A DNA stretch of 64,000 nucleotides from an uncultured bacterium (GTDB taxonomy: Bacteria > Babelota > Babeliae > Babelales > Vermiphilaceae), in assembly GCA_963701085.1 (NCBI GenBank), contig OY969561.1, positions 384,001-448,000 on the forward strand. Reading direction: 5' to 3'. Below the pieces are notes generated by a model, which worked only from the letters and a program-made list of their open reading frames with translations, was not told where the DNA came from and ran no database searches. The translations under genes were made by a program, and so were the position numbers. This document shows, piece by piece, positions 1 to 49,579 of this stretch; position 1 is the stretch's first letter; every line of letters starts with the position of its first letter.

Positions 1-90
1 GAAAATAATAAAAAGATGAAGAAAATTATTAATAATCTTATGGCTCGTATTCAGAAGTTAGAAGCACATATTCCTTCGATACATTTTTGA
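1..90 (+). CDS. 3' end of a probable further fibre paralog (F0, partial), C-terminal coiled coil
   Basis: Frame 1 reads ENNKKMKKIINNLMARIQKLEAHIPSIHF*, resembling the C-termini of the array genes (F2 ends [16 protein letters not shown]). The stop codon lies inside the REP-like element. Only 29 codons are visible. Confidence 0.6.
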   Translation, partial: ENNKKMKKIINNLMARIQKLEAHIPSIHF

Positions 91-205
91 AGACAAAAAC
101 ACTCAGGATGAGCGGCGCTTCGATATGCCTGGCACTCTAGAATCCTAGGTTTCTTTGGTCATCCTGAGTGTTCTTCGAGCTTTGCGAAGAAGAATGTATC
201 GAAGG
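73..205. repeat. REP/MITE-like structured palindromic element, copy 1
   Basis: Terminal inverted repeat CCTTCGATACATT / AATGTATCGAAGG, inner stem AACACTCAGGATGA / TCATCCTGAGTGTT and two side hairpins. Homologous to 63614-63727. Lies between convergent genes. Confidence 0.85.
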
Positions 206-219
206 GCTGATAATGGATA

Positions 220-1251
220 TTATGTTAAAAGAGAAATAAGCGGAGCTTTATTACTGTGGAACTTAGTTCCACCGCAATAAAATCTGTTGCCGCACAGCAT
301 TGGCACAAAATAATGTCCCTTTTTTGTTGGTACAACGATTTTTTTAGTAATTTTGGTGAGGTAGTCATAAGAATATGGTTCAAGAGTAAAATCAATATTT
401 TTTGCGCAATCAACAAAATAAATTTTATTCTTATTAACTCGTGGCAACAAGGGCAAAATGGATTCATAAAGCCGTTGCTCGCCTTCTAATAATAAGTTGG
501 TCGGAACAGAAAAAGAAAAAAGAAGGTTTTTGCACCACACATCACCCTTTTTTATAATCTGATGATACGAAAACGGTGTTGTTGAACTCTCACTATCTAT
601 TTTTTGTGCATGTTCAAGAACAAATCCTTGCGTTGCTGAAAGCATTGTTAAAAAAATGATTGGTGTATTGCCAAAATTAGTAACTGATGTTGCATCGCTA
701 TGATGATAGGTACATTGCATAATGTGATAGCTCGCTCCATTGTTAGTTGTGCACCGCTCAATATAAAACAGTTGATCATCAATTTTTTGTGGATACAGAT
801 AATCACTCCCCTTGTGCCATGCTAATATTTCTAGCGTACCATCAACATGCAATTCAAATAGTGCAAAATTATCATTATAGTACGCGCTGCAGTAACATGT
901 CTGTTCATTAATCCATTGTAGACCATTAATGCCAAACAAAGGCTCATCAAAATCAATTGCTTTGGGTGAACGTTTTTCGAATGATTTTATGCGCAAGCGG
1001 CCATTATCAATAAAACTGAATCCTGCATTATTAGGTAATAATTGTAACCCTGCCGGGTTAAAAACCGACCATAACATTTGTTCTGTTTGATTGGTTTGTG
1101 TGTTCCATTCAAGTAATTCTATGTTTGTTGGAGAGTGCTGATGAATGTATAAAACCGTTGAACCATTGCCAAGAGATGCAACAGGATAACAATATTCAGT
1201 TGCAGGCCTTATTTGTGTATAAAAAAATAAAAAACAATAAAGCAATCGCAT
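220..1251 (-). CDS. Hypothetical exported protein, possibly a TolB-like beta-propeller
   Basis: 343-aa ORF with a hydrophobic N-terminus, AAGGA upstream of the ATG, and a beta-strand-rich sequence. The fold is a guess. Confidence 0.7.
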   Translation of the reverse strand: MRLLYCFLFFYTQIRPATEYCYPVASLGNGSTVLYIHQHSPTNIELLEWNTQTNQTEQMLWSVFNPAGLQLLPNNAGFSFIDNGRLRIKSFEKRSPKAIDFDEPLFGINGLQWINEQTCYCSAYYNDNFALFELHVDGTLEILAWHKGSDYLYPQKIDDQLFYIERCTTNNGASYHIMQCTYHHSDATSVTNFGNTPIIFLTMLSATQGFVLEHAQKIDSESSTTPFSYHQIIKKGDVWCKNLLFSFSVPTNLLLEGEQRLYESILPLLPRVNKNKIYFVDCAKNIDFTLEPYSYDYLTKITKKIVVPTKKGHYFVPMLCGNRFYCGGTKFHSNKAPLISLLT

Positions 1252-1309
1252 ACATATTCCTTTGCAATGATTAATTTAAAAGATATGCGCTTTGCACAAT
1301 AAACACAAC

Positions 1310-1342
1310 AAAAAGAGCTCCGCATCATTGCGGAGCTCTTTT
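1310..1342 (-). terminator. Intrinsic terminator after F1
   Basis: AAAAAGAGCTCCGCA-TCAT-TGCGGAGCTCTTTT, a perfect stem with A/T tracts about 20 bp after the F1 stop. Confidence 0.85.
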
Positions 1343-1361
1343 ATAGATGCTGTTTCTTATA

Positions 1362-3977
1362 TTATGAACGCGCTTCTAAGACTGCTACACGTGCAGCAAG
1401 TTTTTTAAGCTCATTCAATAATAATACTGGAAGTACTTGATATTGAACGGAGAATGGTTGACCATCTGCCTCGTAAACAACAATACCAGGCATTACTTGA
1501 TCAACTTCTTCAGCAACTAAACCATACTGTTTTGTTTCTGTTGCATCGTTATTATATACAAATGTTACAGGATTAAGTTGATAAATCATTTCTGAATCAG
1601 TAGCCATTGACTCAATGTCATGTTTGAATCTTCTAGAAGAGGTCTGTGTTCCGAGCTGTCCACTTGGGACAACTTGAACTGTAAGGTTGCCAACAAGACC
1701 TTGGTTTGCACCATAAATACCCTGGATGAAGCATGCTGTTTGTGATGTTCCAATTCGTATATGATCACTTTCAGCTCCGGTAGCTGGGCTCGCATTAATA
1801 TAAATATCATTGTTACCTGTGGTGAGTCCGGAAGCTGCACTGACACCAATCGCAATATTACCGCTTCCTGTTGTAGCGCCAAAAAGTGCACTATCACCAA
1901 CTGCTGTATTATTGAGACCTGTTGTATTACTGATCATAGTCTGATAACCAAGTGCTGTATTACCAAAACCTGTTGTGTTTGCGGCAAGTGATCCAAAACC
2001 AGCTGCTGTATTATTGGCACCTGCAGTGTTAGCTACAAGTGAATTGAAACCAAGTGCAGTATTGGATACACCTATTGTGTTTACGGCAAGTGCACTGGTA
2101 CCAAGTGCAGTATTAGATGTACCTACTGTGTTTGCGGCAAGTGCACTGGTACCAACTGCAGTATTACCATCGACTGTGTTTGCGGCAAGTGCACTGGCAC
2201 CAACTGCAGTATTATTAACACCTACTGAGTTTAGTACAAGTGCATTGAAACCAACTGCAGTATTAGCATCGCCTGTTGTGTTTAATGAAAGTGCTTGGAA
2301 ACCTACAGCCGTGTTTGTAGAGCCTATTGTGTTTAATTCAAGTGCATTGAAACCAACTGCAGTATTACTACCACCTGTTGTATTACTTACTAATGCCTGA
2401 TAACCAACTGCAGTATTGTTACCTGCTTGATCATTTGCTAATGCATGATAACCAAACGCACTATCATTACTTACTGCTGCACTATTGAGCATTGCACCAA
2501 CTCCAACAGCAGTGTTGAAAGTACCTGTTGCGTTTGATAGAAGAGCATTAGAACCAACCGCAGTATTATTAATACCGATTGTGTTCGATAGTAGCGAGTG
2601 GTATCCAATTGCAGTATTATCGGTACCTGTTGTATTTAGGGCAAGAGCAGAACAACCAACCGCCACATTATCAAACCCTGTTGTATTGTTCTGAAGAGAT
2701 ACCGCACCAACGGCAGTATTACAATTAGCTATGTTTAATAGAAGAGCATTAGAACCAACTGCAGTATTATTAATACCGGTTGTATTTGATACTAGCGCGT
2801 GGTATCCAATTGCAGTATTCTCGCTACCTGTTATATTTGCATTAAGGGTTCCACAGCCAACCGCCACATTATGTATCCCTGTTGTATTGCTTGCAAGAGA
2901 TATTGCACCAATCGCAACATTACAACTACCTATTGTGTTTGCAGTAAGTGCTTGTTGACCAACGGCAGTATTATTGATACCTGTTGTGTTTGCATCAAGT
3001 GCTTGCTGACCAACGGCAGTATTATTCATACCTATTGTATTTGCACTAAGTGCATCAACACCGACAGCAGTATTATTGATACCTGCTGTGTTTGCACCAA
3101 GTGCATCAACACCAAAACCACTATTAGAAGTACCAGTCATGGTAAAATTACCAGCATTATCACCAACAAATGTATTCTCTCCTAAAACGCCTGGATAGTT
3201 ATGGATGAAAGGAATACCATTTTTAATGATGTTGCCAATTGCTGGGCTGATTGAATCATTCATAGAAATATTACAACCAACAGTTAAATCACATCCAATT
3301 ATTTCGTCACCTACTGACAACGTTCCATCAATCTCAACATTTTTATGGAAATGTACATTGCCATGAAAACTCACAAAATGCTCAAATTTTACTTTATCAT
3401 CAAATTTTACTTCATCTTTGAAAGTTACATCTTCGTAAAATTTAGTTCTTCCATGTACATTCATTCTTTCATTGACAACTAACAATCTCAAGCCAGAACG
3501 TGTTGTATCAACTTCTGTTGCGTTAACTTGATCTCTAGCAAATGATAATAGTTCAGCATCAAGGCTTAATTTATCCTCAACAACTTGTTCAATAATGTTG
3601 TTTAAAGATCTAGAAAGGTCTGCAGCTTTATCAGCATCAAGATTAGCAGCATGTTTTTTGAGGGTCATTTCCGCTTGTTCAAGAGCTTGTGCAACTGCAT
3701 CATAGTTACCTATTACAAATCCTTTTTCGATATGATTTGCTAATCCCCACACGGCAGAATCTTGGTTGTCTTCAAGTTTGCTTATTTCTGCTATAACATC
3801 TGCAATGTTACTCACTTCTCTGCCAACATAGACATAAGAGCGTTTTGGGTTATTAAAAATTTCTTGTAATTCAACTTCTGATAAATAAATTTGTGCTTCT
3901 TTTGGTTCGTTTGCGATCAGAGGCAGAGCGATTAGAAAAGTAAGGCAGAGCGCCTTTAAAGATAGTTGTTGCTTCAT
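1362..3977 (-). CDS. F1: exported tail-fibre-like protein with 17-aa NTAVG repeats and a C-terminal peptidase-S74-like chaperone
   Basis: Signal peptide MKQQLSLKALCLTFLIALPLIA, shared helical N-domain, hexapeptide-like F-x-x-x-V-x repeats, 17-aa repeats, then TSSRRFKHDI...YGLVAEEV and a coiled coil. ATG at 3977 follows AAAAGGA; the track starts at TTG 3980. Confidence 0.88.
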   Translation of the reverse strand: MKQQLSLKALCLTFLIALPLIANEPKEAQIYLSEVELQEIFNNPKRSYVYVGREVSNIADVIAEISKLEDNQDSAVWGLANHIEKGFVIGNYDAVAQALEQAEMTLKKHAANLDADKAADLSRSLNNIIEQVVEDKLSLDAELLSFARDQVNATEVDTTRSGLRLLVVNERMNVHGRTKFYEDVTFKDEVKFDDKVKFEHFVSFHGNVHFHKNVEIDGTLSVGDEIIGCDLTVGCNISMNDSISPAIGNIIKNGIPFIHNYPGVLGENTFVGDNAGNFTMTGTSNSGFGVDALGANTAGINNTAVGVDALSANTIGMNNTAVGQQALDANTTGINNTAVGQQALTANTIGSCNVAIGAISLASNTTGIHNVAVGCGTLNANITGSENTAIGYHALVSNTTGINNTAVGSNALLLNIANCNTAVGAVSLQNNTTGFDNVAVGCSALALNTTGTDNTAIGYHSLLSNTIGINNTAVGSNALLSNATGTFNTAVGVGAMLNSAAVSNDSAFGYHALANDQAGNNTAVGYQALVSNTTGGSNTAVGFNALELNTIGSTNTAVGFQALSLNTTGDANTAVGFNALVLNSVGVNNTAVGASALAANTVDGNTAVGTSALAANTVGTSNTALGTSALAVNTIGVSNTALGFNSLVANTAGANNTAAGFGSLAANTTGFGNTALGYQTMISNTTGLNNTAVGDSALFGATTGSGNIAIGVSAASGLTTGNNDIYINASPATGAESDHIRIGTSQTACFIQGIYGANQGLVGNLTVQVVPSGQLGTQTSSRRFKHDIESMATDSEMIYQLNPVTFVYNNDATETKQYGLVAEEVDQVMPGIVVYEADGQPFSVQYQVLPVLLLNELKKLAARVAVLEARS

Positions 3978-4140
3978 CAATCATCCTTTTAGTTAAAAAT
4001 AAAATATACTCTCAATATAAATTCATACTTTTTTGATAATTTGATTTTGATAACCCCTTCCCTGTGTTTGAAAATAAAACATACTTAATAACCATTGATA
4101 TCTTTCTTAACATTTTGAGTCATTAAAATCAAATCTATTC

Positions 4141-7100
4141 TTACGCTCTTACCTCCAGAGCCTGAATACGCTCCATAAGATTTTGTATTATTGCATCGCG
4201 CTGAGCATTATCATTTTTAAGGTCTTCAATAGTTACTTGTTGTTTTTTCATTTCATTTAATAATAATACCGGCAGAACATGATACAGAACCGTTTCTACT
4301 TCACCATCTTTATTTCTTGCTACAATTCCAGGGAATAGTTCATCAACTTCTTCTGCAATTAAACCATACTGTTTTGTTTCTGTTGCATCGCTATTATACA
4401 CAAATGTTACCGGACGCAAATCAAGAATGCGTGCTGATTCATCATTCATATCTTCAATGGCATGTTTTACTTTTCTCGTTGAAGCAGCAACACCAAGTTG
4501 ACCTGTGGCGCTAACAAGGACTCCGGCACCAGTAACGGTAACACCGGTAATATTAGCAATTCGCGTAAAACCAGTTTCACCTGCGGTAGCAGCGCTAAGA
4601 CCAATATAAATATTGTTGCTTCCTGTTGTAACCGTGCCACCTGCACCTGTGCCAATCGCAATATTACTACCGCCGGTTGTAACATTTAGAAGTGCATCTA
4701 CACCAACTGCAACATTGTTATTACCGAATGTGTTTGCAGCAAGAGCAAAGCTACCAACTGCAGTATTATCAGTACCTGTTGTGTTGAGAGTTAATGCATT
4801 ATAACCAATGGCGGTATGGTTACTTACTGAGGTGGTTGTATTGCTTACAGCAAGAGCGTTATAACCAATTGCGGTGTTATGAGTTCCAATAGTATTTGCT
4901 TTAAGAGCTTGATAACCAAGTGCAACGTTATTTGTTCCGGTTGTGTTTGCAGCTAATGCACTTGAACCGACAGCGGTATTAAAGCTTGTTCCCGTTGCAT
5001 TAGCAGCAAGAGCGTTATAACCGATTGCAGTATTATCAGTACCTGTTGTGTTTGCATTTAATGCATTGTAGCCAAGTGCTGTATTATTAATCCCTATTGT
5101 ATTGTGACTCAGAGCAGCACTACCAACTGCAGTATTATCGATACCTGTTGTGTTTGCATTTAATGCAAACCACCCAACAGCAGTACTATCAGTACCCACT
5201 GTGTTTGTAGCAAGTGCACCAGCACCAACTGCAGTATTATCAATACCGGTTGTGTTTGCCTGAAGTGCAGTTGAACCAACGGCAGTATTTGCATTCACTG
5301 TGTTAACTCCTAATGCATTATAACCAAGTGCAGTATTATTTATACCTGTTGCATTTGTAGTCAATGCACTATATCCAACACCAGTATTAAATATTCCAGT
5401 TGTGTTTGCAGCTAATGCACTTGAACCAACAGCGGTACTGCCACTCGTTCCTGTTGCGTTAGCAGCAAGAGCGTTATAACCAATTGCGGTATTATCAGTA
5501 CCTGTTGTACTCACAAGTAATGCATCATAACCAAGTGCGGTGTTGTGAATGCCAACGGTATTTGCAGCAAGTGCACTTTTACCAACAGCGGTATTATTTG
5601 TTCCGGTTGTGTTTGCCGCTAATGCACTTGAACCTACAGCGGTATTAAAGCTTGTTCCGGTTGCATTTGCAGCGAGTGCGTTATAACCAATTGCCGTATT
5701 ATCAGTGCCTGTTGTGCTCACCAGTAATGCATCATAACCAAGTGCGGTGTTATGAGTTCCAACAGTATTTGCAGCCAATGCACTATACCCAACAGCAACA
5801 TTATTATCTGCTGTATTACTAGCGAGAGATCCATATCCAACGCCAATATTATTGTTGCCAGCATTACCTGCTGATGCTCCGACTATAACATTAAAGTTTC
5901 CAATGTTACCTCCACCAGATGTTGAATCAGCACCAACAGACACATTACTACTTCCAGTAATACAGTTAATCAATGCACCAGATCCCAATGCTGTATTAAA
6001 AACACCTGTGGTATTATTTTGCATAGCAAACTCACCAACTGCAGTATTATCATTACCCGTAGTATTAGCAAGCAAAGCAGATCCACCAACAGCCACATTG
6101 TCAAATCCAACAGTATTAACATTTAAGGCAAAATTACCAACTCCTGTATTATCAGTACCTGTTGTATTTGTGGTAAGAACTTGATTGCCAACTGCTGTAT
6201 TACGGTTACCTGTTGTATTTACTTGTAACGCTTGATAACCAACAGCTGTATTAATGCCACCACTTACATCCTTTTGTAGAGCTTGATAGCCAATAGCAAC
6301 TTCAAAGTTTCCCCCAGTAGCATTCATCATTGCCTGATAACCAATTGCTATATTACTACCAAGGGTATCATTTTGCAGAGCTTGATAACCAATAGCAATA
6401 TCATTGGATACACCCGTAGTATTAACCATTGCCTGATACCCAATAGCTGTATTATCAGTACCGGTTGTGTTTGCAGCTAATGCACTTGAACCAACAGCTG
6501 TATTACCAGTACCGGTTACGTTTACAGCAAGTGCATTGTAACCGATTGCGGTATTATCAGTACCGGTTGTGTTGACCGCTAATACATTGTAGCCAACAGC
6601 AGTATTATCAACACCCGTTGTATTTGCAGCTAATGCTTTACTGCCCACAGCGGTATTAAAATTAGCACCTGCTGCATTCGCAGTTAATGCATGATACCCA
6701 ATTCCCGTGTTATCGGTACCCGTTGTCGTAAAGTTGCCGGCATTGATACCAACAAATGTATTGTCTGTTCCAAAATCATGAATAAATCTGTTTGAACCTT
6801 TTAGGATATTACCTGCAGTTGATGTACTTGGTTCAGTGCTTAGGATAAGATTTCCGCTATGAACGCCATCAGTCATACTGATAATTGAGGCAGCAAAGTT
6901 ACCTGATGAATCACGTTTTACCAATGTACTTGCCGTATTTAAGTTAGTTGCAGCATCAACAGTACCTGTTGCAGCCGCAACGTCAGCGGCAGTTTTACCA
7001 CCAACAAAACTAACAACTGTTGCACTTTGCGTACCGGTCACATCACCAGAAAGAGATCCACTAAAATTGGTTGCCGTTGTAGCAGTCGTTGCGTTACCGC

Positions 7101-7746: not shown

Positions 7747-10700
7747 TGATCCAGGAAATTAGTTGCAGTTGTTGCATTACCACTCAATGCCGCTGTAATA
7801 GTGCCAGCAGAGAAATTACCTGATCCATCACGAACAACAATATCACCAGCAATATTTGAACTTGAAATGGTTGCTAAGTTTGCATTAGCAATTGTTGCGT
7901 TTGCTATGCTTGCGCCGGTAATTGTTGCTGCTGTTATATCAGCATTAACAATTAATGAACTTGATAAATTTCCTGATGCATCATTATGGACAACACCAGC
8001 AGCAGTAAATGCATCGATAGAAATAGCACCACCAGAAGCAATTTTCATGCGTTCCAAGGCATTGGTACTGAATGACAATGCACCAGTATTAGTTGATAAT
8101 CCAGCAGTTGTACTACCAGTAAAGGTGAGTGATGGTGCTGCGGTTGTTCCTGCTGGTAGCTGTAAGGTTCCCGTCATGATATCACCAGCTTTAAGTACGT
8201 TGAGCGATGCGCTTCCTGTAACATTACCAATAAGAGCAGCACTTATTGTACCCGCAGAGAAGTTACCGGATGAGTCGCGTTTTACAAGGGTACTTACGGT
8301 ATTAAGATTGGTTGCAGCATCAACAGTTGCCGTTGCAGCAGCAACATCGGTAGCAGTTTTTCCACCAACCAAACTAACAACGGTCGCGCTTTGTGTGCCA
8401 GTGACATCGCCAACCAATGATCCAGAGAAATTGGTAGCGTTTGTGGCAGTTGTTGCTGTTGTTGCGTTACCGCTTAAATTTGCCGTAATTGTACCTGCAG
8501 AAAAATTACCTGATCCATCACGAACGACAATATAATTTGCATTATTAGCGCTTGAAACAGTTGCTAAACTTCCATTGGTTATTGTACCAGCGGTGATATC
8601 AGCATTCACAATTAATGAACTTGATAGTAATCCTGCTGCGCTATTGTGAACCACGCCAGCGGTACTAAATGCATCAATGGTAACACCTGAAGAACTAACA
8701 TTCATAATTTCGATGCCGTTAGCATCGAATGAAAGTGTATTTGCAGTTGCGGCAGAAATACCAGTATTGGTACTTCCGGTAAATTGCAGTGATGGAGTAG
8801 CGGCGCTTTCTGCCGGGAGTACCAGAATTCCCGTCATAGTGCCACCGGCTAGAGGAAGATCAAGCGATGCGCCACCAGTAACGGTACCAGTTAAGTTTGC
8901 AGTGATAGTACCTGCAGAGAAGTTGCCTGATCCATCACGCTTAACTATGGTACTGACGGTATTAGCACTTGTTGCAGCATTGGCAAGCACGGTAGCAGCA
9001 GCAACATTACTTGCAGACTGTCCACCAACCAAACTAACAACGGTGGCCCCTTGCGTTCCGATGACATCACCAGAAAGAGATCCACTAAAATTGGTTGCCG
9101 TTGTAGCAGTCGTTGCATTACCACTTAAAGCTGCAGTAATGGTGCCAGCAGAGAAATTACCTGATCCATCACGGGCAACAATGGTGCTTGCAGTATTAGC
9201 ATCTGTTGCATTTGTTGAGAGCGATACATCATTTGTATCATTGGTAATAATTGTATAGGCATCACCTTCAAGAAGTGTTTTAAAATTAAGCGTTACACCT
9301 GTTTTTCCTTGATAAATAAGCCCCGTTCCTGTGCCAACATTTGCTCCCGTCGTTGTACTTGGCAAACTAAATTCTGCAAATGTTATAGTATTTGTACCAA
9401 TAATTGCCGCTGGCGTATTACATAACCAGCTTGATCCAGCATTTACAGAACCTGAAGTTATGAGAACATATGCCTCACCTGCTGGTGTACCAAGAGCCCA
9501 GTCCGTAGGGTATGTCCACGCACCAGTGGTGTTAGCAAGCCAAATGCCATTGTATATTTGATTTGTTTGACCAACAAGAAGAACACGATCACCTGTAGAA
9601 ACTACTACACTATCAATAGTTTGAGCTCCTGATGGTGGTGAGCCAATATCAGAAGTGGCAACAACGACTGCAGGAGTTTTCGCCACAAGTCCAGTGGATA
9701 CCGCTGCATCAACATAAGCTTTTGTTGCAGCATCAGTTGCATTAGTAACGGTGCCGGTAATGGTAATTTCATTCGCTGAAAAATTACCACTATTATTAAG
9801 CACTACAATAGATCCTGTTTGACCAGTACTTGAAATGGTTGCTAATTTTGCATTGCTTATTGTTGCGTTTGTAATATCACTATTAACAATTAATGAACTT
9901 GATATAAGACCTGAACTATTATTATGAAGAACACCAGCGGTACCAAATGGTGTAATGGTGAATGAATTACTAATTACTTCATCAGTAACACTTATTAAGC
10001 CAGCAGAAAAACCACCAGATGCAGTGCGTTTAACAATTGTACTGGCTGTATTAGCACTTGTTGCAGCATTAGCAAGTACGGTTGCAGCAGCAACAGCAGA
10101 TGCTGTTTGTCCACCAACAAGGCTGACAACTGTTGCTCCTTGAGTTCCGGTGACATCGCCAACTAATGATCCATTAAAATTGGTTGCCGTTGTAGCGGTT
10201 GTTGCATTACCACTTAAAGTCGCGGTGATGGTGCCAGCAGAAAAATTACCTGATCCATCACGTGCAACAATTGCATTTATTGTATTAGCACTTGTTGCGG
10301 TTGTTGCAGAATTTAATACTTTACCAGCGGTGCTAATTGGATTAAGTTTATTATCGGTGATTGCAGCAGATGCACTAATATCAGCATTAACAATTAATGA
10401 ACTTAATAAATTGCCTGATGTATCATTATGTACAATACCTGCAGTACCCGCTAAACCATCAATAGAAACAACACCAGCGGCACTTATTTTCATAGCTTCT
10501 GCTGCATTAGTGCTGAATGACAGTGCGCCAGCATTGGCGGATAATCCGGTCGTTGTACTTCCCGTAAACACGAGTGAAGGTAATGCAGTTGTGCCTGCTG
10601 GAAGTTGTAATGTTCCGGTCATAGTATCGCCAGCTTTTGCAACTTTGCTATTGATCTGTGTTTGCACTGCAGATGTTACACCTGATAAATAACTGAGCTC

Positions 10701-13556
10701 AGTGTTGGTAACAACACTTGAGATAAGTTCATTGGTACTTGGATCAGTTTCAACAACTCTCCCTGTTGTTAATGTGCCAACAATAAGATTGTTATCTGTT
10801 TTTAAAACACCTGCTGCGCTTCTATACAGATTGGTATCAGCATCAAAAACAATTTTAGTTCCTGCGGTTGGTAATTGTAAGAGGTTATTGACACCATCAA
10901 GTTGCATCACTGTATATTCTGAGATTGCTGATTGACCAACAACATCACTATTTTGGTAGCTGAATGAAAGTTGTGCGGTCGATGCATTTTTATTAATGTC
11001 CCACCCGCGTAGGGCAGAAGTTCCACCAACAGGAGAACCGGTATCAGAAACTAGGCGCACACCCGCAATTTTGGTGCGATCAGTTGTTACTGATGTAAGA
11101 TCAGTGTTATTAGGAGATAAAGAATATAACGATGTTGGACTACCATAAATATTTTCAAAACCAAGCCCTTCTGTTGAATATAGTGATGATTTATAGTTAA
11201 GTCCTGGATGATTTGTAGGACTAATAGCTACTTGAACTAAGCTGGTGTTTTTATTTGCTGTTGAACCAATAGTAAGAGCACCGTTATCATCAAGATCAAA
11301 AAATGCCAATTCAACATTAGTAGCATCATTAATACTAATGGTTGAGCTTGATGCAGTTGATGCATTAAAATGAAGCGTTGATGTACCTTCTTGTATGATA
11401 TCGTTGGTGCAATTACGAATAATAAGCCCCGATGCGGTAAGTGTTGTTGATGACGTATCTAATGAAGTACCAATCTGTATACCCGTGGTATAATTATGCA
11501 TAACGCCGCCAGTTATATTCACCGTGCCATTGCCGGAAGTTAATATACCTATACCTTCTGTCGAACCAATAACACTTGCTCCACTGAATTCACAACTAAT
11601 TATTTCAGCAACGGTTCCTGCACCACTCACTTGTATATCTATATCTGATGAGTTATTTGTTAATTCAAATGTACAACCAGAAAGCGTTAGATGTGATGCG
11701 CCATTTTGTACAATATCATATTCATTAAGCCTACAATTAACGCTATTGATAGTAACATTTGCATTGCTTGTTATAGTAGCACCCGTTGTGCATAAACCAA
11801 TGACGCCTCCCGTGAATACAACACTCGAAGCTGCTCCTGTTACGCTCATACCAGTATTTGCTGGTGGTCCTGTTATTACTGATGTACCAAAAATAGTACT
11901 ACTGTTACATTCAACGCGTGTGTTATTAATATCAAGTGCTGTGCCGTTATTAACAAAGAAACAGGTAGCAAAGCCATAAGATTGCGTTGCTCCTCCTGCA
12001 CAGCTTACGCCAACAAGAAAATTAAATACGCGAACATCATTTAATACGGTCAAAGTTCCCGCGGTCAGAGAAATACCTGTTGCCAATGGTGAAGATGATT
12101 GGAATGTTATGTCAGCAATGCGCACCGTATTGTTTATCACCAGAAGGTTGTTTGCCGGTGTATTGGGCATAATGAGTACGCTACTTGCCGATTCCCCTAC
12201 AATAGAAATTCCATCAGTTGTTATGGTGAGTGGAGCACTACTATTATCTTCGGTATAAATACCAGCGCTTATAACAATGCATACGGGATTAAAATCAGTT
12301 GCGAGCGAGTTTGCCACATTAATTGCTTTAGCAAGACTCGCGTACGGCGCATCAAATGAACCATTTCCCGTAACATCATTACCATATTTAGTAACATAAA
12401 TAGTTTCACTGGTTGCAGGAGGAACTGATCCTCCTGTGGTAACCCACTGTAAGTTAGTAGGAGCAATACTATTTGCTTGTAAATATTGAGAAGCTGTTGG
12501 CACTGTTGAGGGCAATGAAACGGTATAACTTACCGGAACAGACGCTGGTGCTTGAATACCAACATATCCTGGTCCTGGATCTAGAAATCGAAGAAATCCA
12601 TTAATAATTTCATCATTCACTGATAACGTGCTACTGACTGATTCATCGACAACTGATAGATTGATTACACATAAGCTAGCTATGCAATCTGCTACTGACA
12701 AGTTGGTAATTGTTGCATTCGTAATAATTGAATCAGTAGAAGAAAAGTTAGTTGCGGTTAATTGTGCAACAACTGAGGATACTGAACCAGTAGCACCCGT
12801 AGCGCCGATGGCACCAGTAGAACCAGTTACTCCCGTAGCACCTGTTGGGCCCGTTGCGCCAATTGTTCCTGCACCAGTGGCTCCTATAGCTCCCGTATTA
12901 CCCGTTGCACCAGTTACTCCTATCGTTCCCGCGCCAGTGGCACCAATAGCTCCTGTTGCGCCTGTACTACCAGTTGCACCTGTTGGACCTGTTGCCCCGG
13001 TTGTTCCACCACCAGATCCCCCTGGACCAGTAGCTCCGGTTGCACCCGTAGGCCCGGCAATGCCCGTTATGCCGATCACTGATCCACTAATTACTAAATC
13101 AACAACAGAAAGATTCTCAACGCATAAATTGTTTATGCAATCTTTTACAACTAAATCAGTTACCGAAAGAGTCTCTTTAACAGTAACACCCTTTTTAAAT
13201 TTTGCTGACTTGCCTACTTTTAATTTACCAAGAACATGTATTCCTTCTTTTGTTAATACATGTTTTTGAAATGTAGCTTTACCAAGAACATTAATATTTG
13301 CATCAATAACTTCCATTGGTTGTCGCATTAATGAGCCATTGGTAACATTATCTATTATTTCATCAAGATTTGTCGCTATTTTTTCTGCATATGCGGTATC
13401 AAGTTTGGCATAATTTTTTTGTAAAAAAGTTTCGGCATATTCAAGCGTTTCAATCACCGCATCATATTCCGCACAAGAAAATCCATTTTCAATATATTTG
13501 CGTAATTCATGCAATGGTGAATAATTATTTTCATCCAAATCACTCAACAAGAACAC
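7611..13556 (-). CDS. F2 central part: N-domain, collagen-like GXT run, beta-helix domain, tail-fibre domain
   Basis: Collagen-like [64 protein letters not shown] and [10 protein letters not shown] repeats. The frame aligns with the F6 N-terminus and stays open upstream to about 13652. Confidence 0.85.
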
Positions 13557-13591: not shown

Positions 13592-13786
13592 CTATATATA
13601 CAACATCAGAGCTTTGGGCAATAATATCTGCTTCAATTGTTGAAATTTGTGCAAGTGATTTGTTGTGCTCATTGCAGACCTGTCCGCCATAGCTTCAGCG
13701 ACGGCGGATAATGGCAGCGGTGCAACTAACAGAGCAAAAGATAAAATAAAAGAACAATAACGGGATAAATGTTTTATATGTTTCAT
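13592..13786 (-). CDS. F2 N-terminal fragment (signal peptide), separated by two 1-nt insertions
   Basis: [26 protein letters not shown] is near-identical to the F6 N-terminus. Alignment with 45890-46020 shows extra bases near 13653 and 13670. Confidence 0.75.
13678..13708. repeat. Short palindrome inserted in-frame in F2
   Basis: ACCTGTCCGCCATAGCTTCAGCGACGGCGGA encodes [11 protein letters not shown] second copy is at 46014-46045, and it is absent from F7. Confidence 0.65.
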
Positions 13787-13829: not shown

Positions 13830-13864
13830 AAAAAAAAGCCCCGCAGTTAAGCAAGGCTTTTTTT
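13830..13864 (-). terminator. Intrinsic terminator after F3
   Basis: Minus strand AAAAAAAGCCTTGC-TTAACT-GCGGGGCTTTTTTTT. The G.U pairs form only on the minus-strand RNA. Confidence 0.75.
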
Positions 13865-13886: not shown

Positions 13887-16800
13887 TTATGCAGTTTCCA
13901 GCACTTTTATACGGTGAGTAAATTCTTGCAGCTGTGCTCGCAAACTATCAATTGCTTCATTCATTGTCTCAACCGTTATCGTAAGATTTTCAATGGTTGT
14001 TTGTTGTTTTTTCATTTCATTTAATAAAAGCACTGGCAACACATGATACAGAACTGTTTCTACTTCACCATCTTTATTTCTTGCTACAATGCCAGGAAAT
14101 AGTTCATCAACTTCTTCTGCAATTAAACCGTACTGTTTTGTTTCTGTTGCATCGCTATTATACACAAATGTCACGGGACGCAAATCAAGAATATGTGCTG
14201 ATTCATTATTCATATCTTGAATAGCATGCTTTACTTTTCTTGTTGAAGTGTTAACACCAAGTTGACCTGTGCCGGTAACAAGGACTGCGGGAACAGCACC
14301 AACGTTAACACCAGTAATGTTAGCAATTCGCGTAGTATTGCTTTCACCTGCGGTAGCAGCACTAAGACCAATATAAATATTACCACTTCCTGTGGTAACC
14401 GTTCCTCCTGCACTGAAACCAATTGCAATATTGTTGCCTCCTGTTGTAACGCTTAGAAGTGCGGAATTACCAACTGCCACATTATCAGCTGATGTGCTTG
14501 CCTGAAGTGCGTGAGCACCAATCGCCGTATTAGCTGCTCCCGTTGTATTCGCAAGTAATGCATCATAACCAACCGCCACATTACCATTCCCAGTTAGAAT
14601 TGCAGCCAATGTACTATATCCAACAGCTGTGTTATTTTGACCTATTGTGTTCACTGTTAATGCATTATAGCCAACAGCGGTGTTTCCATTGCCAGTTGTA
14701 TTTGCTGCAAGTGCACCTGAACCAACGGCAGTACTAAAGCTTGTTCCGGTTGCATTAGCAGCAAGAGCGTTATAACCGATTGCAGTATTATCAGTACCTG
14801 TTGTGTTTGCATTTAATGCATTGTAGCCAAGTGCTGTATTATTAATCCCTATTGTATTGTGACTCAGAGCAGCACTACCAACTGCAGTATTATCGATACC
14901 TGTTGTGTTTGCATTTAATGCAAACCACCCAACAGCAGTACTATCAGTACCCACTGTGTTTGTAGCAAGTGCACCAGCACCAACTGCAGTATTATCAATG
15001 CCGGTTGTGTTTGCCTGAAGTGCTGTTGAACCAACGGCAGTATTTGCATTCACTGTGTTAACTCCTAATGCATTATAACCAAGTGCAGTATTATTTATAC
15101 CTGTTGCATTTGTAGCCAATGCACTATATCCAACACCAGTATTAAATATTCCAGTTGTGTTTGCAGCTAACGCACTTGAACCAACAGCGGTACTGCCACT
15201 TGTTCCCGTTGCGTTTGCAGCAAGAGCGTTATAACCAATTGCGGTATTATCGGTACCTGTTGTGCTCACAAGTAATGCATCATAACCAAGTGCAGTATTG
15301 TGAATACCAACGGTATTTGCAGCCAATGCACTATATCCAACAGCAGCGTTATTTGTTCCGGTTGTATTTGCCGCTAATGCACTTGAACCCACAGCGGTAT
15401 TAAAGCTTGTTCCTGTTGCGTTAGCAGCAAGAGCGTTATAACCAATTGCGGTATTATCAGTACCTGTTGTACTTACAAGTAATGCATCATAGCCAAGTGC
15501 GGTGTTATGAGTTCCAACAGTATTTGCAGCGAGTGCACTTTTCCCAACAGCGGTGTTATTTGTTCCGGTTGTGTTTGCCGCCAATGCGCTACTTCCCATA
15601 GCAGTATTGTTACTTGTTCCCGTTGCGTTTGCAGCAAGAGCGTTATAACCAATTGCAGTATTATCAGTACCGGTTGTACTAACAGCCAATGCATTGTAGC
15701 CAAGCGCAGTGTTATCAACACCAACCGTGTTTGCAGCCAATGTACTTTTCCCTACAGCGGTATTAAAAGTTCCGGTAGTGTTTGCAGCCAATGCACTTGA
15801 ACCAACAGCAGTATTATTACTTGTTCCGGTTGCATTTGCAGCAAGAGCGTTATAGCCAATTGCAGTATTATCAGTGCCTGTTGTACTCACAAGTAATGCA
15901 TCATAACCAAGTGCGGTGTTATGATTTCCAACAGTATTTGCAGCTAATGAACTATATCCAACAGCGGTGTTATTTGTTCCGGTTGTGTTTACAGCTAATG
16001 CACTTGAACCAACAGCGGTATTAAAGCTTGTTCCGGTTGCATTTGCAGCGAGTGCGTTATAACCAATTGCAGTATTATCAGTACCGGTTGTGCTCACAGC
16101 CAATGCATTGTAGCCAAGTGCAGTGTTATCAACACCAACAGTGTTTGCTTTAAGAGCTTGATAACCAAGTGCAACGTTATTTGTTCCGGTTGTGTTTGCC
16201 GCTAATGCACTTGAACCAACAGCGGTATTAAAGCTTGTTCCGGTTGCATTTGCAGCGAGTGCGTTATAACCAATTGCAGTATTATCAGTACCTGTTGTAC
16301 TAACAGCCAATGCATTGTAGCCAAGTGCAGTATTATTAATACCAACAGTGTTTGCAGCAAGTGTACTATATCCAATAGCGGTGTTAAATGTCCCTGTACC
16401 ATTTGCCGTTAATGCACTAGCGCCAATACCAGTATTGGCACCTGAACCACTTGTAGTAAAGTTACCCGCACTAATCCCAACAAATGTGTTATTTGTTCCA
16501 AAATCATGAATAAACCTACTTGATCCTTTTAATATATTGCCCGTAGTTGATGTACTTGGTTCGGCACTTAGGATAAGATTTCCGCTATGAACACCATCAG
16601 TCATACTGATAATTGAGGCAGCAAAGTTTCCCGATGCATCGCGTTTTACAATAGTGCTTGCAGTGTTTGCATTTGTTGCAGCATTTGCAAGTAATGTTGC
16701 AGCAGCAACATTGGCAGCAGTTTGACCGCCAACAGAGCTTACTACCGTTGCTCCTTGTGTGCCCGTTACGTCGCCAACCAATGAACCAGAAAAACTTGTA

Positions 16801-17948: not shown

Positions 17949-18005
17949 ATAAAATCCTTTATCAAAAAAAAAGAATGCGCATATAAGTAATTGAGTCTAA
18001 TACAA

Positions 18006-18041
18006 GCAAAAAGACCCTTGATCAATCAAGAGTCTTTTTGC
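18006..18041 (-). terminator. Intrinsic terminator after F4
   Basis: GCAAAAAGACCCTTGAT-CA-ATCAAGAGTCTTTTTGC, homologous to the hairpin at 28126-28174. Confidence 0.75.
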
Positions 18042-18073
18042 CTTTGTCTAAAAATATTTTTTATGTATTGTTT

Positions 18074-21268: not shown

Positions 21269-21269
21269 G

Positions 21270-21497
21270 TTAAGATGATGCAGCCCCGGTTAAACTTGCG
21301 GTAATGGTGCCGGCAGCAAAGTTACCCGATGAATCACGCAGCACTATAGTGCTTGCAGTATTAAGATTTGTTGCTGTTGTGGCAGAGTTGGCAACTTTAC
21401 CCGTAGTCATAATTGTTGCAAGTTTGGTATCAACTATTGCTGCAGCTGGATCCACATCAGCATTGACAATAAGATGATGTTGATAATAAACCTGCAT
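21270..21497 (-). CDS. F4 internal fragment between frameshifts
   Basis: [21 protein letters not shown]...[17 protein letters not shown] matches the repeat in F6. Bounded by the insertion near 21275 and a cluster of about four insertions at 21474-21517. Confidence 0.7.
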   Translation of the reverse strand: MQVYYQHHLIVNADVDPAAAIVDTKLATIMTTGKVANSATTATNLNTASTIVLRDSSGNFAAGTITASLTGAASS

Positions 21498-21504
21498 GAA
21501 CTCA

Positions 21505-25390: not shown

Positions 25391-25417
25391 AAAAAAACCC
25401 TTGCCTAAGCAATGGTT
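25391..25417 (-). terminator. Probable terminator overlapping the F5 stop codon
   Basis: Minus strand AACCATTGC-TTAG-GCAAGGGTTTTTTT, an imperfect stem followed by a U-tract. Confidence 0.55.
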
Positions 25418-28125: not shown

Positions 28126-28174
28126 ATAAAAACAAAGAGACTCTTGCAAATTGCAAGAGTCTCTTTGTTTTTAT
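28126..28174 (-). terminator. Long hairpin terminator after F6
   Basis: ATAAAAACAAAGAGACTCTTGCAA-A-TTGCAAGAGTCTCTTTGTTTTTAT, 24-bp perfect arms. Confidence 0.85.
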
Positions 28175-28186
28175 GGTAAATTATTT

Positions 28187-32629: not shown

Positions 32630-32964
32630 CGTTGCTCCTTGTGTACCCGTAACATCACCAACTAATGATCCAGAAAAGCTTGTAGCGGTAGTTGCCGTTG
32701 TTGCATTACCGCTGAGTGCAGCAGTAATAGTACCTGCAGAGAAGTTACCTGAGCCATCACGAACAACAATATCACCCGCAATATTTGAACTCGAAATAGT
32801 TGCTAAGTTTGCATTAGCAATTGTTGCGTTTGCTATGCTTGCGCCGGTAATTGTTGCCGCGGTGATATCAGCATTAACAATTAATGAACTTGATAATAAT
32901 CCTGCTGCGCTATTGTGAACAACGCCTGCGGTAGCAAATGGTGTAACGGTAAGTGTGCTACTTA

Positions 32965-46122
<13,158 letters not shown>

Positions 46123-46200
46123 AAAAAGACCTTTTTTTTAATACAATATTTCTGTTGAAACCATAAAAAAAATCCCCGCATTTAAGCAAGGCTTTTTTTT
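46123..46200 (-). promoter_or_regulatory. F6 5' leader, a duplicate of the F2 leader including the terminator-like hairpin
   Basis: Near-identical to 13787-13864. Contains a candidate TTGCTT-N18-TATGGT and an AAAAGGT RBS. Confidence 0.55.
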
Positions 46201-46314
46201 ATTTATATAAACAAACAAACTATTGCTTTAACAACAGGTATTTTGTTTGTCTTTATTGATAAGAAAAATATCTGAAACAAAACAATATCGTTTTTTCTCA
46301 AAAAAAGGAGTCTC

Positions 46315-47139
46315 ATGAAGCTTATTCATATGCCGCGCTTTTTTTCCCTTATTATATCCTTTGCCTTATTGGTGGGACCGCTGCCATTATCCGCCATACC
46401 ACAAGAAACCATTGCACAACTTTCAACAATTGAAGCTGATATTATTGATCAAAATACTGATATTGTATACATAGATCTTAGCAAAGAGCACAGCAACATT
46501 GCAGAAATAGTGTCTTTGTTGAGTGATTTGGATGAAAATAATTATTCACCATTGCATGAATTACGCAAGCACATTGAAGATGGATTTTCTTATGCAGAAT
46601 ATAATGCGGTCATTGAAACACTTGAATATGCCGAAACTTTTTTACAAAAAAATTATACCCATTTAGATGATGCATACGCAGAAAAAATAGCGGCTGATCT
46701 TGATGAAGTAATAGACAATGTTAGCAATGGTTCATTAACACGACAACCAACTCAAATCATTCGTACAAACATTAATGTTCTTGGTAAAGCTACATTTCAA
46801 AAACATGTATTAACAAAACAAGGAATACACGCACTTGGTGCATTAAAAGTTAGTAAATCAGCAAAATTTAAAAAAAATGTAAAAATTGATGGCACGCTTT
46901 CTGTAACTGATTTAGCGGTAGCTAGTTGCATGGATAATTTATGCGTAAATAATCTTTCTGTTGTTGATTTGGTAATTAGTGGATCTGTCACTGGCATAAC
47001 CGGCATTGCAGGTTCAACTGGTGCAACTGGTTCAACTGGTGCAACGGGACCTAGTGGTACAGGTACAATCGGCGCAACGGGCCCAAAGGTGCAACGGGTA
47101 GTACGGGAGCAACTGGTGCAATCGGAGCTACTGGTGTAG
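46315..47139 (+). CDS. F7 N-terminal part (reconstructed gene 46315-49579, ~1,090 aa): signal peptide, N-domain, start of collagen-like run
   Basis: AAAAAAGGAG RBS. The N-domain is near-identical to those of F2 and F6. A 1-nt deletion near 47087 (ggcccaaaggt versus ggc cca aca ggt) breaks the frame. Confidence 0.85.
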
Positions 47140-47162
47140 GAGCAACTGGCGTAACGGGTGCA

Positions 47163-48119
47163 ATGGGTAGTACGGGAGCAGCTGGTGCTATAGGTGCAAC
47201 TGGTAGTATGGGAGCAACTGGTGCAACCGGAGCTACTGGTGTAGGAACAACCGGCGCAGATGGTGCTACAGGTGCAACGGGTAGTACGGGAGCAACTGGT
47301 CTGACTGGTGCAACAGGAGCTACAGGTTCAGTGTCTTCAGTTGTTTCACAATTAACTGCAACCAATTTTTCTGCAACCGATGCAATTATAGGAAATCTTA
47401 CGGTAAGCAATTGCGTTTCAAATTTATGCGTAAGCAGTTTATCAGTTACCAATGAGGTAATTACGGGTGATTTTTCAGTAATTGAAATGACTATTACGGG
47501 TACCGTTACCAATCCAACCGATGCTGCAACAAAAGCATATGTTGATGCCGTAGCTGGCGCTGGCCTTATGCCAAAAACACCAGCAATTGTTATAAGTACA
47601 ACTGATATTGGATCTCCGCCAGCAGGCTTACAAACAATTGATGGTGTTACTCTTGTTGATGGTAATCGCGTACTTCTTAATGGACAAACAAATCCAGCAG
47701 AAAATGGTTTATGGGTTGCACATAGTGGCAATTGGACTCGCCCAGCAGATTTTGCTACGGGAAATCAAGCAGGTGAAGCATATGTTCTTATTCTGGAAGG
47801 AACTGTTTATACCGGTTCAAGTTGGTTGTGCAATACTCCCAATGCGGTGATTGATACCGATCCAATAATATTTACAGAATTTTCTCTTCCTACCAATATA
47901 GTAGGAGCAAACGTTGGTACCGGAACAGGTCAAATCTATCAAGGTAAAACAGGAAACACTCTTAATTTTAAAACGCTTCTTCAAGGTGATGCATATACAA
48001 TTATTACTAACGATGCAAATGACGTATCACTCTCAACAAATGCAACAAGTGCAAATACACCAACTACTATTGTTGCTCGTGATGCTTCAGGTAACTTTGC
48101 TGCACAAAAATCAGTATGA
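47163..48119 (+). CDS. F7 central part: collagen-like run and tail-fibre domain
   Basis: In frame from 47088. GAT repeats, [31 protein letters not shown]. One base is missing in the A5 run at 48106-48110. Confidence 0.8.
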
Positions 48120-49579
48120 CTGATGGTGTTCATAGCGGAAATCTTATCCTAAGCACTGAACCAAGTACATCTTCAGCAGGTAATATCTTAAAAGGTTCAA
48201 GCAGCTTTATTCATGATTTTGGAACGAATAATACATTTGTTGGGATTAGCGCGGGTAACTTTACTACAAGTGGTTCAGGTGCAAATACAGGTATTGGTGC
48301 TAATGCTTTAACAGCAAATGGTACCGGAACAAATAACACCGCTATTGGTTATAATGCATTACTTGTGAACGTAATTGGTTTTTCTAATACCGGAGTTGGT
48401 TATAATGCGCTTGCTGCAAACATAACGAATGGCAGTACCGCTGTTGGTGCACTTGCACTTCAGGCAAACACAACCGGAGTATTTAACACCGCTGTTGGAT
48501 ATAGTGCATTGGCGGTGAACGCAACAGGTGTCAATAATACTGCTATTGGTTATAATGCGCTTGCCAATACAACCGGCGGAGCGGGTGCAAATACCGCCGT
48601 TGGTTCAACTGCACTTCAGGCAAACACAACAGGTATTGATAATACTGCTCTTGGTGCTGGTGCACTTGCATTAAACACAGTGGGTGCTGATAATACTGCT
48701 GTTGGGTGGCTTGCACTTCAAGTAAACACAACAGGTATTAATAATACTGCAATTGGTAGTGCCGCTCTGGGTCACAATACAATTGGTATCTCGAATACTG
48801 CTGTTGGCTTCTCTGCACTGAATGCAAATACTACAGGCAACAGTAATACTGCAATTGGTACTTCATCTCTTGGTGCAAATACCACAGGTCAAAATAATAC
48901 TGCAGTTGGTGATCATGCACTCGCTCTTACTACAACAGGAACTGGCAATACCGCTATTGGTCAAGGCGCATTAGCGGTAAACACAACAGGAATTCAGAAT
49001 ACAGCTCTTGGTAATGGTACATTCGCTGCAGTTACAACAGGAGGTACTAATATTGCGATTGGCCACTTAGCAGGTGGTACACTCACCACAGGAAGTAGTA
49101 ATATTTATATTGGTGTGAGTATGAATGCTCAATCCGCAAGTGAAAGCAATATTACGCGAATTGCTAATATTAGCGGTGTTAACGTTGGTGCTGTTCCGGC
49201 AGTCCTTGTTACTGCAACAGGTCAACTTGGTGTTAATACTTCAACAAGAAAAGTAAAACATGCTATTGAAGATATGAATGATGAATCAGCACGCATTCTT
49301 GATTTGCGTCCGGTAACATTTGTGTATAATAGCGATGCAACAGAAACAAAACAGTACGGTTTAATTGCAGAAGAAGTTGATGCACTATTCCCTGGGATTG
49401 TAGCAAGAAATAAAGATGGTGAAGTAGAAACAGTTCTGTATCATGTATTGCCAGTGCTTTTATTAAATGAAATGCAAAAGCAATACAATGAATTACTTAA
49501 CCATAAAGCTCTTATTGCTCAACTTGAACAACAAGCACAAAATTTTGCTGAACGCCTTAATGCATTAGAAGTACATTAA
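48116..49579 (+). CDS. F7 C-terminal part: 17-aa repeats and S74-like domain
   Basis: [18 protein letters not shown] is internal sequence in the paralogs. Contains [14 protein letters not shown]...YGLIAEEV and a coiled coil. Confidence 0.85.

Follow-up and report, generated by a model that had tools for sequence, protein, structure and literature searches.

We analyzed a stretch of 64,000 nucleotides (hereafter the window; positions 384001-448000 of contig OY969561.1) from the genome of an uncultured Babeliales bacterium, which carries an array of very large paralogous genes for fibre-like proteins. In our reading, to which we assign a probability of roughly 0.6 when the full mechanism set out below is included, these genes belong to a vertically inherited chromosomal multigene family that encodes exported homotrimeric fibres. 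An earlier note on this DNA had proposed a domesticated repertoire of trimeric surface fibres, and our results agree with a considerable part of that proposal: phage-fibre-like modules, Ser and Lys residues conserved in 14 of 14 chaperone domains, leader sequences, the lack of a phage context, graded lengths and a stalk that models as a trimer. Its remaining parts, namely anchoring by the N-terminus, display on the surface and attachment to hosts, are inferred.

Size and layout of the fibre gene family

The part of the window between positions 1362 and 49579 contains nine large minus-strand and three plus-strand open reading frames (ORFs). On the basis of three-frame translations and DNA alignments to paralogs, these could be assigned to seven large paralogous genes (g1-g7; Table 1), with g1-g6 all on the minus strand and g7 on the plus strand, divergent from g6. 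The first 90 bases of the window form the end of an eighth gene (B4) that starts at genome position 380211, so that the seven paralogs and the tail of an eighth described in the earlier note were confirmed. The array size of 48 kb given there proved too small, as the leftward limit was found at genome position 372141, that is, 12 kb beyond the window edge, which gives ~61 kb in all, and additional members were present at 15-25 kb and 249 kb of the genome. Genome-wide, 14 matches to the Pfam family Peptidase_S74 (S74) were identified, all above the cut-off. The window contains seven of them, another four adjoin its left edge (genome 372141-384090), and the remaining three are located at genome 14987-25253. 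By using a profile of the N-terminal 230 residues, we also found a fifteenth, non-S74 member at genome 249304-252369 on the minus strand (locus L027:304-3369).

The source genome is a single contig of 1,198,634 bp, rated 92.6% complete, and all 15 genes together occupy ~71.8 kb, or 6.0% of it. When read through their breaks, the 14 S74 genes encode proteins of 503 to ~5,977 residues (22,927 codons in total), which is the graded length that had been suggested. Their GC content (0.37-0.44) is near that of the genome (0.37). The window paralogs are mostly 65-80% identical at the DNA level, and thus the array appears to be old; for the same reason, the possibility that it is a collapsed-repeat artefact of the assembly was ruled out. 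Stretches with at least 90% DNA identity were only observed between B4 and another gene to the left of the window, B3.

The C-terminal chaperone

S74 domains are intramolecular chaperones that trimerise and then self-cleave, as in the phage K1F endosialidase and T5 pb1, and are typical of phage fibres. The Pfam model (PF13884) matched the C-terminal piece of each of the seven window genes with 33.7-44.9 bits (cut-off 22), and the heptad-like tail that follows the domain was read as a coiled coil, in agreement with the S74-like domain and coiled coil noticed previously. The Ser and Lys of an S-x4-K-H motif (for example, SSRRFKH and STRKVKH) were conserved in all 14 C-termini. A profile of the C-terminal region matched two solved chaperone regions, those of the long tail fibre from phage S16 (6f45_A, E 9.2e-6) and of T5 pb1 (8hqz_d, E 3.5e-5), and the alignment spans the Ser-Lys motif. 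Compared with the SDxxxK-type motif, as cited in a study on the mosaic adhesive trimer (MAT) fibres of Bdellovibrio (Caulton et al. 2024, PMC10769870), S, T or A stands here in place of the Asp that follows the Ser.

Leader, N-terminal domain and stalk

A Sec-type signal peptide had been claimed for each protein. Judged heuristically, all 13 N-termini examined genome-wide showed such a leader pattern, with one to three K/R, a hydrophobic core of at least 12 residues and AxA-like sites over a length of ~18-30 residues, and none of the 13 contained a lipobox Cys. The common N-terminal domain expected by the earlier note (hereafter N-domain) was also evident and could be aligned across paralogs and relatives. 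In an AlphaFold2 model based on a 17-row alignment, residues 50-140 formed a confident and mostly helical domain of ~95 residues (predicted local distance difference test, pLDDT, 85-95), made up of four helices (residues 59-69, 76-85, 93-113 and 116-134) and two short strands. A wide VIA-align search of solved chains in the PDB returned only helical-bundle matches with Z 5.4-6.0 over residues 41-144, which are not meaningful; no match was found among viral models by Foldseek at E <= 0.001, and residues 1-210 had no PHROG match.

Trimer modelling by segment had been recommended in the earlier note, and the stretch just after the N-domain modelled as a homotrimer. When three copies of residues 46-230 were modelled, the score was 0.92 in three runs versus 0.00 for the best of three controls, the runs agreed in at least 95% of contacts, and the partner pLDDT was 76-78. 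The interface was restricted to residues 142-230, and the helical domains lay outside it. In the calibration of the tool, the mark was reached by 20 of 30 solved pairs and by one of 23 single chains; since two copies and other alignments were used there, these counts apply to the three-copy job only roughly. As a monomer, residues 142-230 had been modelled as a small beta-helix that matched bactofilin (2n3d; Z 8.8, root-mean-square deviation 1.9, 78 aligned residues). This bactofilin-like reading of residues 141-230 was rejected, because the three-copy model turns the stretch into an inter-chain interface instead. The models would be compatible with an architecture in which three small heads sit at the base of a trimeric shaft.

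Mosaic shafts

The shafts are covered by PHROG matches to tail fibre, tail spike and virion-structural families, which supports the variable phage-fibre-like modules reported previously. They are mosaics of collagen runs, short Cys-containing repeats and repeated fibre units with motifs such as G-V-V-H-N and R-D-x-S-G-N-F, and these modules are shuffled between paralogs. G-X-Y runs are present, and Pfam Collagen was above the cut-off in g6 and g7. A knob domain, with motifs that include NGLW, occurs in g5 (residues 461-564) and also in g4, g6 and g7; the g5 copy matched PDB 9nx3_A, named 'capsid decoration protein' (E 4e-11). With regard to the 17-residue repeats that had been ascribed to each gene, a period of 17 residues was the top autocorrelation peak (0.23-0.45) in eight of nine pre-S74 regions tested, and the repeats gave PHROG tail spike and virion-protein matches; the exception was the short pre-S74 region of g5, in which no clear period could be detected.

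The long genes carry, in addition, one to four modules of 680 residues that are predicted from a model to fold as tailspike-like right-handed beta-helices. Six copies with 60-64% identity were identified, four in g6 and one each in g2 and g4. At the sequence level, the module matched no PDB chain at E <= 1 and no Pfam family at E <= 10. At the level of the model, residues 88-460 best matched the Vag8 passenger (7akv_G; Z 25.8, root-mean-square deviation 3.9, 337 aligned residues), followed by phi29 gp12 (3gq7_A, Z 23.7) and, at Z 18-22 with ~300 aligned residues, by many phage tailspike depolymerases (among them those of CBA120, HK620 and Klebsiella phages), alginate epimerases and lyases, and the adhesin PfbA. 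Considering that the top match is a bacterial autotransporter passenger, the fold alone is no pointer to a phage origin.

The fifteenth member combines the leader and the N-domain with a G-X-Y stretch of ~615 residues (Pfam Collagen, E 5.7e-92), which is followed by a non-S74 C-terminal domain of ~90 residues. In its C-terminal 110 residues, Pfam matched nothing except collagen, and matches in the PDB did not go below E 0.64. A BclA/C1q-like tip may be conjectured.

Occurrence in related genomes

At E <= 0.001, the N-terminal profile had matches in 32 of the 261 genomes from the phylum. These included each of the other 10 genomes in the genus, with 3-13 matches per genome and open frames of up to 7,403 residues; as 11 candidates were scored per genome, the figures are lower bounds. 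Matches that cover the helical domain at E <= 1e-9 were found in 19 of the 261 genomes, including the source genome, and the weaker ones touch the stalk repeats only. Syntenic arrays in relatives, which the earlier note had suggested looking for, could be identified: matches cluster, for example, at 724-802 kb in one genome (G255) and at 959-1007 kb in another (G253), and in a relative metagenome-assembled genome (MAG) the array starts right after xerC-dnaN-recF, as it does in the window. A pattern search for related loci with a five-row alignment, which reaches close relatives only, yielded four loci in two MAGs. In a library of 1.84 billion representatives without taxon labels, 1,046 proteins matched at E <= 0.001, 369 at E <= 1e-10 and 106 at E <= 1e-30, and in nearly all of the 150 library matches listed the match started at residue 1-40.

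The proposed assignment to a host-dependent bacterium of the Dependentiae was in agreement with the ProRS encoded to the right of the array, whose relatives with a taxon name were all labelled 'Candidatus Babeliales bacterium' (76-80% identity, one 65%) or 'Candidatus Dependentiae bacterium' (65%). One fibre homolog was also named Babeliales. Members of the Dependentiae/Babeliales are widespread obligate parasites of protists, and to our knowledge the mechanism by which they attach to and enter their hosts is not known.

Frame breaks in the long genes

Only g1, g3 and g5 are uninterrupted in the window, and g2, g4, g6 and g7 carry frame breaks. The background level of such breaks was measured with 400 kb of a genome of the same genus (G252), in which 154 of 202 ORFs of at least 250 residues had a match in the source genome. 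After matches with <45% identity, matches to the fibre arrays and duplicate loci were dropped, 115 genes (183.5 kb) were kept. These conserved genes contained 23 frame junctions in 14 genes, or one per 8.0 kb; it should be noted that two of the 115 genes, with four junctions each, could represent repeats or genuine pseudogenes, and that the rate falls to about one per 12 kb when they are left out. For comparison, eight junctions were counted in the 68.8 kb of the 14 S74 fibre genes, or one per 8.6 kb. The rpoC gene of the source genome (108675-112825) is itself distributed over three frames, owing to an additional T at ~110,160 and a second single-base indel at ~112,505. Because conserved genes, including rpoC, break at the same rate, the breaks in the fibre genes are most likely assembly errors rather than decay, and at this background level a long gene can be expected to contain some. 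Downstream of the breaks, the reading frames are again long and open and the S74 motifs are intact, and uninterrupted fibre frames of 3,924-7,403 residues occur in relatives. One consequence is that automatic annotation will wrongly call the largest fibre genes pseudogenes.

Gene features and genomic context

The features of the individual genes are shown in Table 1. A terminator-like hairpin with a U-run follows five of the seven window genes, consistent with the suggestion that most of them have their own terminator, and no clear terminator was found after g2 or in the folded stretch after g5.

Table 1. Features of the fibre genes and adjoining ORFs (window positions unless marked as genome positions; c. 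and ~ denote approximate positions)
Feature	Position	Strand	Details
B4 (eighth gene)	genome 380211-384090	+	last 30 codons, a predicted coiled-coil tail, at window 1-90; S74 at genome 383677-383862
B4 frame break	~genome 382760-382890	+	one break
343-residue ORF within array	220-1251	-	single-copy
g1, uninterrupted fibre gene	1362-3980	-	871 residues from Met at 3977
g1 order of parts		-	leader, N-domain, 17-residue repeats, S74 (1479-1640), short predicted coiled coil
g2, fibre gene	4141-c.13796	-	~3,217 codons, frame-broken
g2 frame breaks	~13,680-13,700; ~7,750	-	two 1-nucleotide insertions near 5' end; 10-nucleotide gap versus g6
g2 modules	12780-13073; 10557-12596; 4321-4482	-	collagen; one predicted beta-helix; S74
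g3, uninterrupted fibre gene	13887-17948	-	1,353 residues; ~44 copies of 17-residue repeat; S74 14085-14246
g4, fibre gene	18074-25320	-	~2,414 codons; at least two frame junctions within 21268-21505
g4 modules	22660-24717; 18272-18430	-	one predicted beta-helix; S74; also a knob domain
g5, uninterrupted fibre gene	25405-28083	-	892 residues
g5 N-terminal parts	~28012-28083; 27661-27948; 27394-27660	-	leader; helical N-domain; modelled trimer-forming stalk
g5 C-terminal parts	26395-26706; 25591-25752; 25408-25590	-	knob; S74; predicted coiled coil
g6, giant fibre gene	28187-46122	-	~5,977 codons; one 1-nucleotide deletion at ~32,975
g6 modules	45130-45468; 28430-28591	-	collagen; S74
g6 four predicted beta-helix modules	42943-44985; 40225-42270; 36733-38778; 34027-36072	-	
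g7, fibre gene	46315-49579	+	~1,087 codons; S74 49241-49402
g7 frame junctions	~47,100; ~48,100	+	inside collagen run (46993-47333); 1-nucleotide deletion
Terminator-like hairpin and U-run, g1	1306-1342	-	z -4.55
Terminator-like hairpin and U-run, g3	~13830-13863	-	z -2.98
Terminator-like hairpin and U-run, g4	~18005-18042	-	z -4.03
Terminator-like hairpin and U-run, g6	~28126-28174	-	z -6.95
Terminator-like hairpin and U-run, g7	~49595-49654	+	z -7.43
Right flank, housekeeping	50016-54614	-	family-2 glycosyltransferase, RecF-like ATPase, DnaN, XerC/D-type recombinase

Just left of the window, where the earlier note had asked about phage head or tail genes, none were present; the genes to the left of the array encode IleS, DnaB and RuvC instead, and the right flank continues with ProRS, FKBP and an ankyrin protein. 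The 13 ORF pieces and the flanks yielded no family of capsid, tail or beta-barrel proteins, and the genome contained no match to phage sheath (PF04984) or HK97 capsid (PF05065), with terminase, portal and baseplate families not searched. The statement that the array is free of capsid, tail, integrase and barrel genes therefore holds for capsid, tail and barrel, and needs to be qualified by a XerC/D-type tyrosine recombinase at 53706-54614, beyond the range that the statement covered. As this recombinase adjoins dnaN-recF and its position is kept in a relative, it appears to be a housekeeping gene.

The single-copy 343-residue ORF had no Pfam, PHROG or NCBIfam match. An ortholog (59% identical over 183 residues) is located at the edge of a relative's array (L003:19791-20336), and it is possible that the protein is a conserved partner of the fibres. 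The family-2 glycosyltransferase (50016-50963, minus strand) adjoins g7, between the array and recF, and may modify the fibres. Further to the right, a 703-residue ORF on the plus strand (61501-63612) had no Pfam match, and the AT skew rises sharply over 60-64 kb of the window (0.19-0.28). Rfam and tRNA scans of the window found nothing.

Proposed mechanism and alternative explanations

On the basis of these features, the following series of events could be envisaged. The Sec-type leader would carry the chain across the inner membrane. The C-terminal S74 chaperone might then register three chains, after which the repeats, collagen runs and shaft modules would fold as a trimer, because this is the known behaviour of S74 in K1F endosialidase, T5 pb1 and Bdellovibrio Bd3182. 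As the conserved residues suggest, the chaperone would subsequently cleave itself off at the Ser of the S-x4-K-H motif. More speculatively, the three helical N-domains at the base of the stalk may hold the mature fibre at or near the cell surface, and export across the outer membrane may use the secretin system of the genome; secretins were the only outer-membrane export candidates sought, and two matches (PF00263), ~4 kb apart and with open frames of 242 and 443 residues, are located at genome 995062-1000107. Finally, if they act as phage tailspikes and the MAT fibres of Bdellovibrio do, the knobs and the one to four beta-helix domains might bind, and perhaps cut, protist glycans and promote attachment or uptake. 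By scaling the 550-angstrom model of Bd3182 given in PMC10769870, the g6 fibre could be extrapolated to a length of roughly 0.3-0.4 micrometre at most.

The use of 6% of a reduced 1.2-Mb genome for one fibre family suggests that the family is central to the biology of the organism. The fibres are probably tools for gripping host cells, as on Bdellovibrio, and their genes are concrete candidates for host-range determinants. A further-reaching proposal, which we put forward only tentatively, is that the fibre set is the host-entry apparatus of this lineage, that is, a coat of graded length whose beta-helix domains would bind or cut protist glycans and trigger uptake. If so, the fibre set would correspond, in a bacterium, to the fibrils of giant viruses and the tailspikes of phages, its gene content would set the host range, and docking to an envelope receptor would occur through the helical N-domain, as a new kind of module.

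A number of observations weigh against the exported trimeric fibres and the mechanism proposed here. The signal peptides were judged by our own n/h/c heuristic, not by SignalP. The N-domain has no recognisable anchoring fold (best Z <6 over residues 53-141) and would be only a putative envelope binder, so that release of the fibres is possible. The region immediately ahead of S74 differs rather little among paralogs, and thus the binding parts may lie elsewhere or not exist. The model of the 680-residue module was poor overall (mean pLDDT 49.9) and confident only at about residues 250-410, and no catalytic residues were identified in it. In addition, it is hard to account for the route of a folded trimer, with up to ~6,000 residues per chain, across the outer membrane. 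With regard to the frame breaks, neither the 10-nucleotide gap of g2 nor the clustered indels of g4 resemble simple sequencing errors. When the breaks were checked against public reads, no run contained more than 0.18 of the sampled words (32000-34000), and of the short public contigs, some of which are identical over 151-214 bases, none crosses the break at ~32,975. One of these, a metatranscriptome contig identical to g6 over 214 bases (32000-32213), then runs into a different repeat copy and is no proof of transcription. Short g6-identical contigs also occurred in soil metagenome and freshwater metagenome runs, which indicates presence at low depth only.

Several of these points could also be accommodated if the fibres were exported and processed but then released, either as an extracellular or intravacuolar matrix or coat, or as soluble glycan-degrading enzymes. 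The position of the helical N-domain outside the modelled trimer interface, the lack of a known anchoring fold, the failure to find a lipobox, LPXTG or beta-barrel anchor and the resemblance of the tailspike-like beta-helix modules to depolymerases would all fit such a release; nevertheless, a strictly conserved N-domain on otherwise mosaic proteins is the pattern of a shared docking end, as argued for MAT fibres, and we regard release as rather unlikely. It appears improbable that the array is decaying, with the four broken window genes and B4 as real pseudogenes of an old expansion and only the short intact genes at work. The three uninterrupted window genes are indeed among the shortest, none of the breaks in g2, g4, g6, g7 and B4 lies in a long homopolymer, and they include the gap and the clustered indels mentioned above; on the other hand, essential rpoC (two breaks) and the other conserved genes are equally broken, longer genes should gather more errors, and both the intact downstream pieces and the long open frames of relatives argue against decay.

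A more recent connection with phages was considered as well. PHROG families of tail fibres and tail spikes are matched by the modules, and the chaperone is typical of phage fibres, as would be the case if the proteins were tail fibres of a cryptic prophage, a tailocin or an extracellular contractile injection system encoded elsewhere, or had been acquired recently with a phage. Sec leaders, housekeeping flanks, a GC content near that of the genome, the same site beside xerC-dnaN-recF in a relative, the occurrence of the family in all 10 other genomes of the genus and the lack of sheath and HK97 capsid matches (within the limits of the families searched) in a nearly complete single-contig genome make such an origin very improbable. 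We give next to no credence to trimeric autotransporter adhesins (type Vc secretion), even though the 17-residue Gly/Asn/Ala repeats are like adhesin head repeats and one metagenome source labels a relative 'trimeric autotransporter adhesin'. The absence of a barrel anchor speaks against this assignment, as neither a YadA-type C-terminal anchor nor an autotransporter barrel was detected in the 13 ORF pieces (Pfam, E <= 0.01), and all C-termini consist of S74 and a predicted coiled coil. Taken together, chromosomally encoded and vertically inherited fibres remain our preferred explanation.

Comparison with known systems

We found no description of this family in the literature. Full-text searches that paired Dependentiae, Babeliales or Chromulinavorax with endosialidase, S74 or intramolecular chaperone gave nothing relevant, and the words 'fibre'/'fiber', 'collagen' and 'adhesin' are absent from the Chromulinavorax paper and from the TM6 comparative paper. 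Judged by titles and abstracts, the literature that uses the term 'mosaic adhesive trimer' deals with predatory bacteria only. The names Dependentiae, Babel and TM6 are absent from the text-readable part of the supplementary tables on MAT-like proteins in PMC10769870, and a listing elsewhere in that source is possible.

According to Caulton et al. (2024, PMC10769870), the MAT superfamily of Bdellovibrio bacteriovorus (for example, Bd3182) comprises 21 genes, which encode a signal peptide, a conserved beta-rich N-domain of ~130 residues and a trimeric mosaic fibre; 13 of the 21 genes have an S74 tip and eight have other tips. The fibres are displayed on the surface, one of them binds prey glycans, and cleavage has been shown. 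The Babeliales family is similar in being a chromosomal multigene family (15 genes here versus 21) with a signal peptide, one conserved N-domain, a long mosaic trimeric shaft and an S74 tip in most members (14 of 15 versus 13 of 21, with other tips in the rest), and in occurring in a bacterium that depends on recognising another cell and entering it. There are also clear differences from the MAT fibres as described there. The N-domain has ~95 residues and is mostly helical in the model, compared with ~130 residues and a structure described as beta-rich in MAT; a remote homology is possible. The host is a protist and not a bacterium, and the genes are clustered in arrays. The chains reach ~6,000 residues versus ~1,000, with beta-helix modules repeated in line, and the tips before S74 are rather conserved, whereas those of MAT and phage fibres are diverse. 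Furthermore, display, cleavage and glycan binding have been demonstrated for MAT, whereas the Babeliales family is known here from genes and models. Because its N-domain is shorter and helical, the family was not filed as a member of the MAT superfamily.

Other known systems share individual parts of this design. Like the phage S74 fibres (K1F endosialidase, T5 pb1 and the S16 long tail fibre), the proteins have an S74 domain with Ser and Lys, triple-helical repeat shafts and PHROG matches; unlike them, they have a Sec leader, a genomic setting without virion or tail genes, vertical inheritance in the genus and an N-domain without a PHROG match. The 680-residue module models as the same fold as tailspike depolymerases and phi29 gp12 (Z 18-24 over ~300 residues), but differs from the depolymerases in having no Pfam or PDB sequence match and in occurring in up to four copies per chain. 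YadA-type adhesins are likewise long, trimeric and repeat-rich, adhesion being a putative role in the present case; however, they are anchored by a C-terminal beta-barrel, whereas the C-terminus here is a chaperone that would be removed, and it is the N-terminal end that is conserved. BclA of Bacillus and Scl of Streptococcus form surface filaments that are collagen-like. The G-X-Y runs resemble these, especially in the fifteenth member with its collagen stretch and small C-terminal domain, although the NCBIfam Scl1 and Scl2 models scored only 39.6 and 35.8 bits (cut-offs 400 and 325) through G-X-Y alone, and LPXTG is lacking.

The earlier note had regarded the size and uniform design of the array as what stands out. 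This is true of the scale; the design is shared with the published MAT fibres and is thus not new, and the remark that S74 proteins are known in bacteria understates the precedent. What distinguishes the family is its share of a reduced genome, its N-domain, giant chains with up to four predicted tailspike-like domains and the protist-parasite lifestyle of the bacterium that carries it. Our data extend the MAT idea, in which repertoires of fibres are assembled from parts of phages, beyond a bacterial predator to a parasite of eukaryotes. Two predicted elements are added to it, namely a new domain at the N-terminus and chains in which as many as four tailspike-like domains occur. The scale, the distinct N-domain and the tailspike-like modules repeated in line are what is new here in comparison with the known systems.

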